From: an uncultured Bacteroidota bacterium | GTDB lineage: Bacteria; Bacteroidota; Bacteroidia; AKYH767-A; OLB10 | Direction of reading: 5' to 3' | NCBI GenBank assembly: GCA_900696575.1 | Contig: CAADHD010000025.1 | Location: forward strand, 85,753 to 149,752 | DNA: 64,000 nt | Shown: piece by piece, positions 8,469 to 35,480 of the stretch | How positions within the stretch are numbered: the stretch's first letter is position 1 | How the letters are laid out: each line of letters opens with the position of its first letter | Program-made: the position numbers and the translations under genes | The notes under the pieces: generated by a model | The model's database searches: none | What the model saw: the letters and a program-made list of their open reading frames with translations, nothing else | What the model was told of the DNA's origin: nothing

Positions 8469-9754
8469 ATAATCATACCGGCTGCTACGGTTTCATTGGT
8501 TCCTTCGTCAATAAGAATCACGCTTCCGGTTATTCTGTTTTTGCGGTAACTGTCATAAAAAAGAGGAACCGTAGTACGAATCAGGATTCTGCCAATGTCG
8601 TTCATACCGATTTCTTTGTCCTGTTCATTGCGGTGAAGCGAATTAATATCTACTTTATAACGCACATCTTTAATAATGCAGCGGGCTTCTTTGGTGGTAT
8701 GCCTGATAGCATACTTTCCGTTGGGAACAAGTTTCTTATCATTCATCCAGCAAACCATCATGTCAATATCCTGGCCAACGGTTGGTGTATTATTCTCACG
8801 TACAATCATATCGCCTCTGCTGATATCTACATCCGTATCGAGGGTGATGGTAACACTTTGCGGTGAGAATGCTTCGTCAAGCGCTTCGAGTTCACCGTGT
8901 TCAACCTGATGAATGGCTGTAATCTGAGCGGCAAAACCCGATGGCAATACTTTTACCTTATCGCCCGGTTTAAATACCCCGCTGGCAATACGGCCGGCAT
9001 AGCCTCTGTAATCATGAAACTCCTTTTGCTGCGGCCGGATAACATACTGAACCGGAAAGCGGCAGTCAATATGGTTTTCATCACCGGTAATATGAACATG
9101 CTCTAACAAATAAAGCAAGGTAGGGCCCTGATACCAGTCCATGTTCTGCGAGCGTTCAACTACATTATCTCCATTTAAAGCACTGATAGGTATGAAGTGT
9201 ACATCTTTTACATCCAGTTTTGAGGATAGCTTTTTATACTCCTGAACAATTCCTTCAAAAACCACTTCACTGTATTCAACCAGATCCATTTTGTTGATGC
9301 AGACAATGATATGCGGAATACCAAGCAGTGAAGCAATGAATGAATGACGGTTGGTTTGCTCAACCACGCCTTTTCGTGCATCAATCAGTATAATGGCAAG
9401 GTTGGCAGTGGAAGCACCTGTTACCATATTGCGCGTGTACTGAATATGGCCTGGCGTATCGGCAATGATGAATTTCCTTTTAGGAGTAGCAAAATACCGG
9501 TAAGCCACATCAATAGTGATTCCCTGTTCGCGCTCGGCTTTTAATCCATCGGTTACTAAAGAGAGGTCAACGTGACTGAATCCTTTGCGCCTGCTGGTTT
9601 GTTCAACCGCTTCAAGCTGATCTTCAAAAATGGCTTTGCAGTCTAAAAGTAAACGTCCAATCAATGTGCTTTTGCCATCATCCACGCTGCCTGCCGTTGT
9701 AAAGCGCAGCAGTTCCATGTTTAAATAAGATTCCTGATTAAACGGGGGGGACAT
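8465..9754 (-). CDS. cysN: sulfate adenylyltransferase subunit 1 (GTPase)
   Basis: GTPase motifs GSVDDGKST, DTPGH and NKMD, plus an EF-Tu-like domain II. Confidence 0.9.
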   Translation of the reverse strand: MSPPFNQESYLNMELLRFTTAGSVDDGKSTLIGRLLLDCKAIFEDQLEAVEQTSRRKGFSHVDLSLVTDGLKAEREQGITIDVAYRYFATPKRKFIIADTPGHIQYTRNMVTGASTANLAIILIDARKGVVEQTNRHSFIASLLGIPHIIVCINKMDLVEYSEVVFEGIVQEYKKLSSKLDVKDVHFIPISALNGDNVVERSQNMDWYQGPTLLYLLEHVHITGDENHIDCRFPVQYVIRPQQKEFHDYRGYAGRIASGVFKPGDKVKVLPSGFAAQITAIHQVEHGELEALDEAFSPQSVTITLDTDVDISRGDMIVRENNTPTVGQDIDMMVCWMNDKKLVPNGKYAIRHTTKEARCIIKDVRYKVDINSLHRNEQDKEIGMNDIGRILIRTTVPLFYDSYRKNRITGSVILIDEGTNETVAAGMII

Positions 9755-31074: not shown

Positions 31075-31100
31075 ATATTCTGCTCCTTCAGAATAAGTTT
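31075..31100. terminator. weak bidirectional hairpin between the convergent batE and pyrD genes
   Basis: 7-bp stem TATTCTG / CAGAATA with a 6-nt loop, followed by GTTTT on the plus strand and U-rich sequence on the minus strand. Confidence 0.3.
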
Positions 31101-32119
31101 TAGGCTAATGACTTCTCAATTCTTTTCACCAAAGCCGGCCCTTCGTAAATAAACCCTGTGTAAACCTGAACCAGATCAGCACCAATTTTTATTTTTTCAA
31201 GGGCATCCTCAGGCGAGTGTATTCCACCACTGGCAATTAATGAAAATCTCTTTCTGCGGTGAGCAGCAATATACGCCAATACTTCATCGCTTTTCTTTTT
31301 AACGGGTTTGCCGCTTAATCCGCCAACTTGATTAACCAGATCAGAATTTGATTTCAATCCATCGCGGCTTATCGTAGTGTTGGCTGCAATTATGCCGGCA
31401 AGATTCGTTTCTTCAACAATAGAAATTATTTGATCAAGCTGCGTTTCAGTAAGATCAGGAGCTATTTTAAGAAAAACCGGTTTCTTAAAAGGCATTTTCT
31501 TATTCTCTTCCTGCAATACATTCAGAATTTTGCGGAGCATATCGCCATCCTGCAATTCGCGTAGTCCGGGGGTGTTTGGCGAACTTACATTCACCGTAAA
31601 AAAATCAACAACCGGGAATAACTTATTAAAACAATACAGGTAGTCGTCTGCTGCATTCTCATTGGGTGTGTCTTTGTTCTTTCCAATGTTTCCTCCAACG
31701 ATGAGTTTACTTTTTCGTTTGCTTAATCGCAGGGCAATAGCATCTGCACCGTCATTGTTAAATCCCATACGGTTAATGATGGCTTCGTCTTTCGGCAATC
31801 TGAACAGTCTGGGTTTGGGATTGCCGGCCTGTGGCCGCGGAGTGATGGTTCCAACTTCAATGAAAGAAAACCCGAAATACTCCCATTCATCCACAAGCAT
31901 TGCATTCTTATCAAATCCTGCGGCCAGTCCAACCCTGCCGGGAAATGCAAGGCCATTTAGTACAACAGGATTTGTTTGGTGTTGACAAAAAATCTTTCTC
32001 AGCAATAAACTTAAAAACGGAATCCTAACCAACCGTTTAATACAGCGAAAAGTGAAATGATGGGCCTGTTCGGCATCCATCATAAAAAGTAAAGGGCGGA
32101 TGATTGCCTTATAAATCAT
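31100..32119 (-). CDS. pyrD: dihydroorotate dehydrogenase (quinone), class 2
   Basis: N-terminal membrane-association helix and the FMN-binding TIM-barrel motifs GGIHSPEDA and GADLVQVYTG. Confidence 0.85.
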   Translation of the reverse strand: MIYKAIIRPLLFMMDAEQAHHFTFRCIKRLVRIPFLSLLLRKIFCQHQTNPVVLNGLAFPGRVGLAAGFDKNAMLVDEWEYFGFSFIEVGTITPRPQAGNPKPRLFRLPKDEAIINRMGFNNDGADAIALRLSKRKSKLIVGGNIGKNKDTPNENAADDYLYCFNKLFPVVDFFTVNVSSPNTPGLRELQDGDMLRKILNVLQEENKKMPFKKPVFLKIAPDLTETQLDQIISIVEETNLAGIIAANTTISRDGLKSNSDLVNQVGGLSGKPVKKKSDEVLAYIAAHRRKRFSLIASGGIHSPEDALEKIKIGADLVQVYTGFIYEGPALVKRIEKSLA

Positions 32120-32142
32120 GACGCAAAAGTAATCGGCAGGTT

Positions 32143-32175
32143 GCTAAACTATTTTAGGCTAATCTAAATTATTTT
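32143..32175. promoter_or_regulatory. operator-like repeats: direct repeat CTAAA-N-TATTTTA x2 enclosing the inverted repeat TTTTAG-N6-CTAAAT
   Basis: Read from the sequence. It resembles DtxR/MntR-type AT-rich palindromic boxes and lies immediately upstream of and abutting the -7 box of the regulator gene. Confidence 0.35.
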
Positions 32176-32183
32176 ATATGTTT
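32176..32183 (+). promoter_or_regulatory. -7 promoter box TATGTTTG (TAnnTTTG) for the dtxR-like/mntH operon
   Basis: Perfect consensus match 16 nt upstream of the start codon, with a TTG triplet about 35 nt upstream of the box. Confidence 0.4.
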
Positions 32184-32198
32184 GCCAAAATTTAAATT

Positions 32199-32864
32199 AT
32201 GCCATCCCTTACGGCTGAGAATTACCTGAAAACGATTTATCACCTGCTGGAGCAGGAACCTGACGGAGTAACTACCAATACACTGGCCGCTTCGCTCAGT
32301 ATAAAACCCGCTACGGTTACCGACATGCTACGTAAGCTTTCAACAGACAAATTGGTGAAACATGAGAAGTACTATGGCGTTACCTTAACGGATAAAGGCC
32401 GTAAAACAGCACTTGAAATCATCCGCAGACACAGATTATGGGAAGTTTTTCTTGCGCAGAAACTGCAGTTTGCATGGGACGAAGTTCATGACATGGCTGA
32501 GCAGTTAGAGCATGTTCAATCTGATGAATTAATTGAGCGATTAGATAAATTTTTAGGTTATCCGAAAACCGACCCTCATGGCGACCCGATACCTGATAAG
32601 AGAGGAAAAATTTCCATCCATGATTTCAAACCGTTATGTGTACTGACGCAAAAACAAACCGGAGTAATCTCAGGAGTAACGGAACATTCGCCTTCCTTTC
32701 TGCAATACCTCGAAAAAAACGGATTGAGCCTTGGTAATGAGATTGAAGTAATGGAAGTACATGCTTTTGATATGTCAGCCGATGTAAAACTGAATCAGAA
32801 GAAAGTTATTCACCTGAGTTATGATGTAACGAAAAACATTTTGATAAAGCAACATGGAAAGTAA
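32199..32864 (+). CDS. DtxR/MntR-family metal-dependent transcriptional regulator with a C-terminal FeoA-like domain
   Basis: Helix-turn-helix region NTLAASLSIKPATVTDMLRKL, a metal-binding and dimerisation region, and an SH3-like C-terminus. Confidence 0.85.
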   Translation: MPSLTAENYLKTIYHLLEQEPDGVTTNTLAASLSIKPATVTDMLRKLSTDKLVKHEKYYGVTLTDKGRKTALEIIRRHRLWEVFLAQKLQFAWDEVHDMAEQLEHVQSDELIERLDKFLGYPKTDPHGDPIPDKRGKISIHDFKPLCVLTQKQTGVISGVTEHSPSFLQYLEKNGLSLGNEIEVMEVHAFDMSADVKLNQKKVIHLSYDVTKNILIKQHGK

Positions 32865-34728
32865 TACAATACGCCCTTCCCTTTCGGAAGTAAATGCATC
32901 GGTTGACACGAATAAAAAATCTGTCGGAAAAAAACTGCTGGCTTTTTTGGGTCCGGCATATTTAGTCAGTGTCGGGTACATGGATCCGGGTAACTGGGCG
33001 ACCGATCTTGCCGGAGGCAGCAGGTATGGATATACCCTGATATGGGTTTTGCTGATGAGCAACCTGATTGCATTGCTGCTGCAAAGTTTATGCGCCCGGT
33101 TAGGAATAGTGCGCAGCCGCGATCTGGCTCAGGCTTCGCGTGAAATGTATCCGAAGCCCGTCAACTATTTTTTATGGTTTCTTGCCGAAATTGCAATAGC
33201 TGCCACTGATCTTGCCGAAGTTTTAGGGATGGCCATAGGTCTTCAACTGCTCTTTGATATTCCGCTCATGTGGGGAGTAACGATTACCGTACTGGATACC
33301 TTCATCGTATTGCTGCTGCTCAACCGGGGAATGCGCGCCATGGAGGCATTCATCATCACAATGGTTGCCATCATCGGTCTGTGCTTTCTGGCTCAAATGT
33401 TCTTTTCAAAGCCGGATATTGCGGAAGTAGCGGGTGGTTTAATTCCCTCCATTCCTGACAGCACCGCACTTTACATTGCCATTGGAATTATTGGGGCCAC
33501 GGTTATGCCGCATAATCTCTACCTGCATTCTTCTTTAGTACAGACACGCAAGTTTGAGCGAACATCAACAGAAATTAAAAAAGCCATCCGTTTCAATATT
33601 ATTGATTCTGCCATTGCATTAAATATGGCATTTCTTGTAAACTCAGCAATACTGATTCTTGCCGCAGCTACTTTTTATAAAAACGGTTTGTTTGAAGTTG
33701 CAGAAATTCAGGATGCTCATAAACTGCTTGAGCCTTTACTTGGCACTCAATGGGCGCCTGTACTTTTTGCCGTAGCATTGATTGCTGCCGGGCAAAGTTC
33801 AACCGTTACCGGAACCTTAGCCGGTCAAATTGTAATGGAAGGTTATTTAAACATCAGGCTTGCACCTTGGCTCAGGAGGCTGATTACCCGCTTGATTGCC
33901 ATTATTCCCGCATACATCAGCATATCTGTTTTCGGTGAAGGAAGTACCGGTGATTTGCTGGTGTTGTCTCAGGTAATTTTGAGTTTGCAGTTAGGCTTTG
34001 CCATTATTCCGTTGATTCATTTTGTAAGCGACAAAAAAGCAATGGGTCAATTCGCAGCCGGCATGTGGATTAAAATTCTTGCCTGGATTTCTGCTTTGAT
34101 TATCATTGGTTTGAATGTTCAGTTGGTCATTGAAACATTTGGCGAATGGATGACTGGTGAGTATGCCTTTGTCCTTCAACTGACAGTACTCCCGCTGGCA
34201 GTAATCACTCTTGGAGTTTTGTTATACATCTCAATTATGCCCTTATTTAAAGGAATGAAGAAAGAAGAAAGCCGGGTTCCCCATGGATTGTACGATGAGT
34301 TTCAGCTCTCCTCCCCTGTCCCTTACAAAAAAATTGCCGTTACGCTTGACTTCAGTGAACATGATCACCTTGCCATCAATCATGCATTAAAGCAAGGGGG
34401 AAAAGAGGCGGAATACCTGCTTATTCACATCACCGAGTCTCCTACGGCATTTATGTTTGGAAAAGAAACGAGGGACTATGAATCAGAATCGGACAAGATT
34501 AACATGCAGAAATATATTGATAGTCTGACTGCCCTCGGATATAAGTGTACAAAAGTGATTGGCTTCGGCAAACCGCGAAACCAGATACCCAAACTGGTAA
34601 AAGATTTTGATGCTGATCTTTTAGTTATGGGTGCTCACGGACATCAGACCATGAAAGACATTTTGTTTGGTTCAACGGTTAATGCAGTAAGACATAAAGT
34701 AAAAATTCCTGTTCTAATTGTAAGATGA
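32854..34728 (+). CDS. mntH: Nramp-family divalent metal (Mn2+/Fe2+) transporter fused to a C-terminal universal stress protein (UspA) domain
   Basis: Nramp motifs GPAYLVSVGYMDPGNWATDLAGG and MPHNLYLHS across 11-12 TM helices, followed by a roughly 140-aa Usp-like domain (LVMGAHGH...VPVLIV). Confidence 0.85.
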   Translation: MESNTIRPSLSEVNASVDTNKKSVGKKLLAFLGPAYLVSVGYMDPGNWATDLAGGSRYGYTLIWVLLMSNLIALLLQSLCARLGIVRSRDLAQASREMYPKPVNYFLWFLAEIAIAATDLAEVLGMAIGLQLLFDIPLMWGVTITVLDTFIVLLLLNRGMRAMEAFIITMVAIIGLCFLAQMFFSKPDIAEVAGGLIPSIPDSTALYIAIGIIGATVMPHNLYLHSSLVQTRKFERTSTEIKKAIRFNIIDSAIALNMAFLVNSAILILAAATFYKNGLFEVAEIQDAHKLLEPLLGTQWAPVLFAVALIAAGQSSTVTGTLAGQIVMEGYLNIRLAPWLRRLITRLIAIIPAYISISVFGEGSTGDLLVLSQVILSLQLGFAIIPLIHFVSDKKAMGQFAAGMWIKILAWISALIIIGLNVQLVIETFGEWMTGEYAFVLQLTVLPLAVITLGVLLYISIMPLFKGMKKEESRVPHGLYDEFQLSSPVPYKKIAVTLDFSEHDHLAINHALKQGGKEAEYLLIHITESPTAFMFGKETRDYESESDKINMQKYIDSLTALGYKCTKVIGFGKPRNQIPKLVKDFDADLLVMGAHGHQTMKDILFGSTVNAVRHKVKIPVLIVR

Positions 34729-35480
34729 TGATTAAAAAAGTTGTTCTGATTACATTGCTTTTGCCGGTTTCTGTTGCAGCTCAGGAACTATCAACCGACA
34801 GGCCTGATCAGACCGAAGCTCCTTTTGTGGTTCCATTCCGTACGATTCAAATCGAATGTGGATTTCTCCACAGAAATGAAAAATCCGGCAAAAGCGCTGA
34901 GCTTCCCTCTATTCTTTGGAGATTAAGTCTTTCTGAAATTATGGAAATGCGAATCATCACTACCCATTTAAAAAACAGAACTGGCGAATGGAAAGAAAAT
35001 GGAATTACACCTGTGGAGATCGGTTTTAAAATAAAGGTGTGTGATGAAAAAGGAATACGACCTCAAATCGGATTTATTCATCATTTGGTTTTGCACCGGA
35101 TTGCTTCAGAAAATTTCAAAGCAAATAATTATGCTACTAATTTTCGTTTTGCTGTACAACATAATCTGAGTGATAAAGTAAACTTAAGTTACAATGCCGG
35201 TATGGAATGGGAACCTTACCGAAGTACCGGTAATTTTGTTTACACCCTTACTTCAAGCTTTGGGATGACAGATAAACTCAGTGTTTATGTTGAGATATTC
35301 GGAACAATACCTGAACAGGAAAGCAACATACACAGTTTTGACGGAGGTATGGCTTTTCTTTTATTTCCCAACCTTCAGTTGGATGTATCAGCCGGAGCTG
35401 ATTTCAAAAACCCTTCGGAAAACTATTTTATCAGTTCCGGAATTTCGTGGAGATTTTCAACAAAGAAATATTCAAATTAA
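34725..35480 (+). CDS. outer-membrane beta-barrel protein (MetA-pathway / transporter family)
   Basis: Signal peptide, then the motif TDRPDQTEAPF typical of the Phenol_MetA_deg-like OM barrels. These are commonly linked to Nramp genes in Bacteroidota. Confidence 0.5.
   Translation: MMIKKVVLITLLLPVSVAAQELSTDRPDQTEAPFVVPFRTIQIECGFLHRNEKSGKSAELPSILWRLSLSEIMEMRIITTHLKNRTGEWKENGITPVEIGFKIKVCDEKGIRPQIGFIHHLVLHRIASENFKANNYATNFRFAVQHNLSDKVNLSYNAGMEWEPYRSTGNFVYTLTSSFGMTDKLSVYVEIFGTIPEQESNIHSFDGGMAFLLFPNLQLDVSAGADFKNPSENYFISSGISWRFSTKKYSN

Follow-up and report, generated by a model that had tools for sequence, protein, structure and literature searches.

A predicted DR2539-type operator overlapping the promoter of an mntR, mntH-usp and outer-membrane barrel gene cluster in Bacteroidota

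The DNA considered here is a stretch of 64,000 nucleotides (referred to as the window) from an uncultured Bacteroidota bacterium, corresponding to positions 85,753 to 149,752 of contig CAADHD010000025.1 in assembly GCA_900696575.1. Close to its centre, a regulator of the DtxR/MntR family, a transporter of the Nramp type (MntH) that carries a C-terminal universal stress protein (Usp) domain and an outer-membrane barrel are encoded one after the other on the plus strand. Directly ahead of the regulator gene lies a short dyad of the form TTTAG-N6-CTAAA. We consider it likely, with good though not full confidence, that this dyad serves as operator for the three-domain, MntR-type repressor encoded next to it, which in its metal-loaded form would shut off the common promoter of the three genes. 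An initial annotation of the sequence had proposed such a metal-dependent autorepression of the three genes as one unit, and comparative as well as structural-homology evidence supports an operator that overlaps the regulator's own promoter. The assignment draws on the sequence anatomy, on conservation across the phylum, on the place of the dyad relative to the promoter box and on the homology of the regulator to a protein that has been crystallised with its operator. That the regulator binds the dyad, that it represses in response to metal and that the genes form one transcript are predictions from these observations.

The promoter region is a short intergenic stretch that separates the three-gene cluster from the divergently oriented pyrD gene and reads in the order GACGCAAAAGTAATCGGCAGGTTG-CTAAACTATTTTA-GGCTAAT-CTAAATTATTTTA-TATGTTTG-CCAAAATTTAAATT-ATG (Table 1). 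Its most visible feature is a 13-nt direct repeat, for which a repeat finder returned two copies with 12 of 13 identical positions and a start-to-start spacing of 20. This repeat encloses the inverted repeat TTTTAG-N6-CTAAAT, within which the two core arms TTTAG and CTAAA are perfectly complementary. The second repeat copy is directly adjoined by the sequence TATGTTTG, an exact match to the -7 box TAnnTTTG of Bacteroidetes promoters, which is located 14 nt ahead of the regulator ATG. Direct repeat, enclosed dyad and abutting -7 box are thus all present as initially annotated. The same holds for the two gene overlaps, 11 nt long where the regulator gene meets mntH and 4 nt long where mntH meets the barrel gene.

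Table 1. Coordinates of the promoter elements and genes of the window and of barrel homologues in related loci
Feature	Position	Strand	Description or basis
pyrD (dihydroorotate dehydrogenase), divergent	31100-32119	-	Pfam DHO_dh 6.2e-82
Intergenic region, 79 nt	32120-32198		between pyrD (minus strand) and three-gene plus-strand cluster
pyrD -7 box TACTTTTG	32124-32131	-	4 nt from pyrD ATG
Direct-repeat copy 1 CTAAACTATTTTA	32144-32156	+	non-conserved flank CTAAACTA and left operator arm
Predicted primary operator O1, TAT-TTTAG-GCTAAT-CTAAA-TTA	32150-32171 (core 32153-32168)	.	position weight matrix score, conservation, DR2539 geometry
Inverted repeat	32152-32169 (TTTTAG 32152-32157, spacer GCTAAT, CTAAAT 32164-32169)		enclosed by direct repeat
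Direct-repeat copy 2 CTAAATTATTTTA	32164-32176	+	right operator arm and AT-rich spacer toward -7 box
Candidate weak secondary operator O2, TTT-TATAT-GTTTGC-CAAAA-TTT	32172-32193	.	22 bp downstream of O1; speculative
Bacteroidetes-type -7 box TATGTTTG (TAnnTTTG) of mntR operon	32177-32184	+	exact match
DtxR/MntR-family regulator, three-domain, 221 aa	32199-32864	+	Pfam Fe_dep_repress, Fe_dep_repr_C, FeoA
MntH (Nramp) with C-terminal Usp domain	32854-34728	+	Pfam Nramp 1.8e-136, Usp 3.7e-22
Outer-membrane barrel, Phenol_MetA_deg family, last operon gene	34725-35480	+	Pfam PF13557 4.1e-21
Barrel homologue beside regulon	L006:3085-3915		
Barrel homologue beside regulon	L021:6509-7336		
Barrel homologue beside regulon	L045:3701-4510		
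Barrel homologue beside regulon	L068:4214-5008		
Barrel homologue beside regulon	L109:2096-2938		
Barrel homologue beside regulon	L153:666-1499		
Barrel homologue beside regulon	L001:3134-3940	-	
Barrel homologue beside regulon	L159:667-1404	-	

Within the window the dyad alone is not significant, since three matches with at most one mismatch were found where 3.5 are expected. A motif of this length is too short to reach significance in one window, and the dyad was therefore tested by comparison with related loci. Searching the regulator against one genome per species and against metagenomes provided 160 Bacteroidota loci, in which the regulator is 47-58% identical to that of the window, plus 81% in a single locus (L081). 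The upstream regions share the dyad TTTAG-N6-CTAAA with A/T flanks, the consensus being TTTTTAG-ACTAGT-CTAAAAA. Where Nramp follows the regulator, an exact site is found upstream of the regulator in 71 of 74 loci, and where the two genes diverge in all 19. For the reversed order, in which Nramp-Usp precedes the regulator, none of the 16 loci carries the site upstream of the regulator, and in the two of them with enough flanking sequence (L074 and L080) it is located ahead of Nramp. The first 80 loci, comprising 633 kb, contain 81 exact sites, 69 of them in the 200 nt ahead of the regulator. Of the other 12, some belong to loci without an assigned regulator start, some are located at a greater distance upstream (as in L074 and L080, before Nramp) and three are copies inside genes, of the kind described below for the regulator coding sequence.

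This is the pattern of a phylogenetic footprint: the arms are kept while the 6 bp between them and the flanking sequence change, and the site follows the promoter. It is this conservation across related loci that gives the dyad its significance. In loci that lack Nramp, operator and regulator precede ABC transporters of the ZnuA/TroA type, ZIP transporters or TonB-dependent receptors; the site therefore tracks the promoters of divalent-metal uptake operons that carry the regulator. Locus L081, the nearest relative of the window, retains the operator arms, the T-run spacer, the -7 box (with TATGTTTG identical) and the pyrD leader block GACGCAAAAGTAA. It differs in the central 6 bp and has CATTAC in place of the upstream CTAAAC (32144-32149), such that the direct repeat as such is not conserved. 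Judged from this comparison, it is the dyad rather than the direct repeat that is the functional element, and the element in the window is very probably a real, conserved and mechanistically ordinary operator.

To quantify the match we derived a symmetrised position weight matrix (PWM) from 87 unique Bacteroidota sites. The window site at 32150-32171 scores 26.3 bits, close to the training median of 27.9 bits, and no other position in the 64 kb exceeds 7.1 bits. On the same matrix the operator of the Deinococcus regulator DR2539 obtains 16.5 bits, the DtxR consensus 7.4 bits and the mntH box of Bacillus subtilis -12.4 bits, compared to 26 bits for the window site.

DR2539 offers a structural precedent. 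It recognises ATTTTAGTCGCGCCTAAAAT (ATTTTAG-N6-CTAAAAT) in the promoter of dr1709 (mntH); its complex with DNA, solved at 2.2 A, contains one dimer on a 21-bp site, and mutations of the arm T residues abolish binding (bioRxiv 10.1101/2024.02.12.579695; PDB 8pvt/8pvz/8pw0). In vivo its repression of mntH depends on Mn(II) and Fe(II) (PMC3327659). The window shares with this system TTTAG and CTAAA arms separated by 6 bp and flanked by A/T, a location at an mntH promoter and a cognate regulator of three domains (winged helix, dimerisation/metal domain and SH3/FeoA-like domain) that belongs to an Nramp gene. The recognition helices (KPATVTDMLRKL in the window regulator, APASVTGMLRKL in DR2539) follow the common pattern P-A-[ST]-V-T-x-M-L-R-K-L, and both proteins have the wing Tyr and a Glu/Glu/His metal site. 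With respect to the structure 8pvt, the DNA-reading residues Pro37-Ala38, Arg45-Lys46 and Tyr58 (the wing Tyr59) are kept, while Lys36 takes the place of Ala37. His97 corresponds to the critical His98 of DR2539, and Lys11 is common to both. The two systems differ in phylum and in promoter type, the window having a -33/-7 promoter with TAnnTTTG. They differ also in the central 6 bp, which are GC-rich in Deinococcus (TCGCGC) and AT-rich in the window (GCTAAT), and in that the window regulator is predicted to be autoregulated and co-transcribed with mntH-usp and the barrel gene. Going by its sequence, the window box is of the DR2539 type and neither a classical DtxR box nor a B. subtilis MntR box. 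The initial annotation had likened it to DtxR/MntR boxes in general, which holds as far as an operator of that regulator family is concerned but not for the classical 19-bp DtxR/IdeR or the B. subtilis MntR type.

Other characterised members of the family differ in their DNA sites or architecture. Among solved structures, the best sequence match of the window regulator is MntR of Mycobacterium tuberculosis (Rv2788; 5zr4/5zr6), with an E-value of 1.7e-45 for 5zr4 over residues 5-190, compared to 8e-34 for 8pvt. The mycobacterial protein is a three-domain, Mn-dependent repressor of mntH and of an ABC transporter, and its validated targets quoted in PMC11416365 (e.g. CATTATTGCGACGTCGACGGTACAGTGCCA) do not contain TTTAG-N6-CTAAA; its operator specificity therefore appears to be different. 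The DtxR/IdeR iron box TTAGGTTAGCCTAACCTAA and the B. subtilis MntR box AATTTGCCTTAAGGAAACT are likewise palindromic operators of the superfamily that overlap promoters of metal-uptake genes, and the DtxR box has TTAG/CTAA-like elements in common with the window site. The iron box is, however, an odd palindrome of 19 bp that combines TTAG-N1-CTAA with TTAG-N11-CTAA, in contrast to TTAG-N6-CTAA in the window. A classical iron box was discarded as a description of the window site, the best match being 14/19 and offset from the dyad centre, and so was a box of the B. subtilis type in view of its negative PWM score. B. subtilis MntR has two domains, whereas the window regulator possesses a third FeoA/SH3 domain. 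In our literature search the only experimentally studied Mn regulator of the DtxR family from Bacteroidota was PgMntR of Porphyromonas gingivalis, and no description of a TTTAG-N6-CTAAA box in this phylum was found. PgMntR is co-transcribed with the Mn transporter that it controls and its DNA binding is enhanced by Mn2+ (PMC4805248), while its architecture with two FeoA domains is a different one.

Promoters read by the Bacteroidetes sigma-A factor consist of a -33 element TTTG and a -7 box TAnnTTTG, as established in Bacteroides and Flavobacterium. The latter motif is depleted in the window, with 25 copies compared to 67 +/- 8.6 expected, and all of 100 shuffled sequences contained more. Two of these 25 copies lie back to back in the intergenic region between pyrD and the regulator, one for each gene. 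The -7 box of the regulator starts 8 nt after the right operator arm. In 35 of 75 non-redundant related sites an exact -7 box is found at a distance of 3-8 nt, and in 18 the distance is 24-31 nt. With the usual spacer of about 19-21 nt, a -33 element would be expected over the left arm, where TTTA at 32153-32156 matches three of the four positions of TTTG; this TTTA(G) half-site probably serves as the -33 element as well. The upstream CTAAAC was considered as a -33 element of pyrD and rejected, given its 13-nt spacing to the pyrD -7 box and its absence from L081. A scan for sigma-70 promoters and terminators, which is not applicable to Bacteroidetes promoters, gave no enrichment (10 found, 11 expected).

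Since the predicted operator lies over the expected -33 position and the spacer, promoter occlusion would be the most likely mechanism. With sufficient Mn2+, and possibly also Fe2+, a metal-loaded dimer would occupy the dyad with one winged-helix domain on each TTTAG half-site. The bound dimer would cover the spacer and the expected -33 position, block the contact with sigma-A and exclude RNA polymerase. Occlusion of the promoter would silence all three genes (regulator, mntH-usp and barrel) as a single transcript, which amounts to negative autoregulation. Upon Mn limitation the apo-protein would leave the DNA and the uptake operon would be expressed. Mn2+ is probably the effector, as indicated by the ligand set of the regulator and the content of the regulon; responsiveness to Fe2+ is conceivable as well, given that DR2539 responds to Fe(II). 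No RNA family was matched in an Rfam scan of the whole window, and no riboswitch is expected, given that the leader comprises at most about 14 nt.

Several observations weigh against an operator that works as in DR2539. The best NCBIfam match of the regulator is the Thermus/Deinococcus-type MntR (NF047407) at 164.3 bits, which is below the equivalog cut-off of 350 bits; the regulator is thus placed in a related Bacteroidota subfamily and is by the equivalog criterion a relative rather than an orthologue of DR2539. Within the protein, the primary metal site has Asn8 where DR2539 has Asp11, and the recognition helix has Asp42 instead of Gly43. The transcription start, predicted at about 32188-32192, and the -33 element are placed by consensus spacing alone. 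The PWM scan gave no second strong operator in the 64-kb window. Finally, the study of PgMntR used a 385-bp fragment and a regulator with two FeoA domains and left the operator unmapped (PMC4805248).

Part of the uncertainty concerns the metal. The operon could be an Fe2+ uptake unit whose operator responds to iron in a DtxR/IdeR-like manner. DR2539 responds to Mn(II) as well as Fe(II) in vitro and in vivo (PMC3327659), PgMntR binds Fe(II) with high affinity (PMC4805248), Nramp transporters can carry Fe2+, and Pfam names the regulator domains "iron dependent repressor". We nevertheless regard iron control as improbable. The primary metal site of the window regulator is formed by Asn8, Glu101, Glu104 and His105 and contains neither Met nor Cys, whereas Fe-sensing DtxR uses Met10, Cys102, Glu105 and His106 (PMC4805248). 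The best family matches are MntR models for the regulator and MntH for the transporter (599 bits, above the cut-off of 430), the window site is no 19-bp iron box, and the DtxR consensus scores far below it. In addition, the neighbours of the regulon in relatives are TroA/ZnuA-type ABC and ZIP transporters, two classes characteristic of Mn/Zn uptake. A more radical doubt is that the repeats are chance AT-rich promoter sequence or the site of an unrelated factor with no link to the adjacent regulator, as might be argued from the AT-rich intergenic region and from a dyad that specifies only 5+5 bases and is not enriched in the window. Its conserved position throughout the phylum despite a variable spacer sequence makes this highly improbable, as do its relocation with the Mn-uptake promoter when the gene order changes and a geometry identical to that of the experimentally defined operator of a homologous regulator.

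A separate question is whether the direct repeat contributes to binding by a composite operator. Here the phased half-sites CTAAA (32144), TTTAG (32153), CTAAA (32164) and TTTAT (32173), or O1 in tandem with O2, would be occupied cooperatively by at least two dimers on one face of the DNA, extending over the -7 box and the start site. Of 5000 shuffles of the 79-nt intergenic region, about 0.1% produced a 12/13 direct repeat, and fixing the operator and the -7 box in place made no difference. When PWM scores are averaged over the family, a sharp secondary maximum appears at +22 and a weaker one at -22, with 6 of 75 sites reaching at least 5 bits at +22; CTAAA occurs at -11 in 7 and TTTAG at +22 in 6 of 73 non-redundant sites, where about 0.26 are expected. 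The best direct repeats of related promoters cluster at spacings of 20-22, and in the window itself the +22 position (32172-32193) is the fourth best PWM match of the 64 kb. However, the additional half-sites of the window occupy positions -9 and +20, which do not coincide with the -11/+22 seen repeatedly in other lineages, and the upstream CTAAAC is the one missing in the closest relative. The O2 candidate, which covers the -7 box and the start site, reaches only 3.2 bits (0.7 bits with an AT-rich background), is weak in L081 and coincides with a -7 box that is conserved for its own reason. Phased A/T runs in AT-rich flanks easily give rise to such repeats, and DR2539 crystallised as a single dimer on its 21-bp site. 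A functional role of the direct repeat is for these reasons rather unlikely. The direct repeat, with which the initial annotation had led, appears to be mostly a by-product that provides at most weak auxiliary half-sites; only the inverted repeat that it encloses is conserved. As members of a dispersed repeat family the 13-nt units were also rejected, the window containing 10 matches with at most two mismatches compared to 7.9 expected.

The predicted single-dyad operator extends a known mechanism and does not overturn the current understanding. It supplies a motif at nucleotide level for Mn regulators of the DtxR/MntR family in Bacteroidota, a phylum for which no mapped operator was found in the searched literature. 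Because the motif has a DR2539-like geometry, the structural rules of the DR2539-DNA complex are probably transferable to this large and environmentally dominant phylum. With this motif, Mn regulons can be predicted in Bacteroidota genomes; in the loci seen here they comprise Nramp-Usp, ABC transporters of the TroA type, ZIP transporters, TonB-dependent receptors and a putative channel for Mn in the outer membrane. A further aspect is the repressor half-site that apparently doubles as an unusual Bacteroidetes -33 element.

Homologues of the Phenol_MetA_deg barrel adjoin the regulon in eight loci (Table 1). Three arrangements are seen, with the barrel gene following Nramp-Usp, following the regulator directly or lying divergently on the other side of the operator. 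Mn-regulated outer-membrane channels have a functional precedent in MnoP of Bradyrhizobium. The repeated attachment of barrel homologues to the MntR regulon suggests that the barrel is a Mn-regulated outer-membrane channel and as such a candidate Mn2+ channel. The Nramp-Usp fusion of the window is shared by more than 60 of the 160 related loci from several Bacteroidota orders. A broader scheme, which we put forward as a tentative and rather doubtful possibility, would regard the Bacteroidota MntR operator as modular, with a strong dyad over the -33 element and half-sites or a second dyad about 22 bp away that permit cooperative occupancy of the -7 box by several dimers. In the same scheme the regulon would recruit the barrel as a dedicated Mn2+ channel and Nramp-Usp with the Usp domain as a stress or nucleotide input to Mn import.

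Some related loci carry a second near-complete dyad. It is located about 22 bp upstream in L022, L025 and L026 (e.g. TTTAG-TTAATT-GTAAA) and 22 bp downstream in L003, L004 and L083 (e.g. TTTAG-ATTTGT-GTAAA over the -7 box and the ATG). Dyads at this distance represent tandem operators that are two helical turns apart. A different arrangement is seen in Spirosomaceae (Larkinella, Fibrisoma and Spirosoma; L028-L041, L057, L059, L070 and L077), where a divergent Nramp gene without Usp domain shares its intergenic region and a single operator with the regulator. The operator is positioned 25 nt upstream of the regulator's -7 box, a geometry unlike that of the window.

Two near-sites inside genes of the window were rejected as functional operators. 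One of them lies within an open reading frame at 9479. The other, TTTAGGTTATCCGAAA at 32552-32567, matches 9 of 10 arm positions and is part of the regulator coding sequence, where it is accounted for by the codons of a conserved FLGYPK peptide. In several relatives this intragenic copy is an exact TTTAG-N6-CTAAA (L019:4351, L030:409, L068:3683 and L082). As it encodes F-L-G-x-P-K, it is most simply a coding coincidence, with an internal low-affinity site as a conceivable alternative.

The pyrD gene is a neighbour of the operon and not a predicted member of the regulon. A divergent pyrD is also found in L046, L061 and L063, and L081 has a pyrD-like reverse-strand ATG with the conserved leader in the same place. 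The pyrD -7 box is contained in the leader block that is invariant in L081, and its distance of only 4 nt from the ATG suggests a leaderless or nearly leaderless pyrD mRNA. For many of the related regulators the -7 box is likewise separated from the ATG by only 4-5 nt.

An unusual fusion was observed in locus L042, where regulator and operator precede an ABC transporter of the TroA/ZnuA type. The ABC-3 permease encoded there (L042:6428-7717) carries a C-terminal Fe_dep_repr_C domain, i.e. the metal-binding and dimerisation domain of DtxR, and thus represents a transporter fused to a metal-sensor domain.

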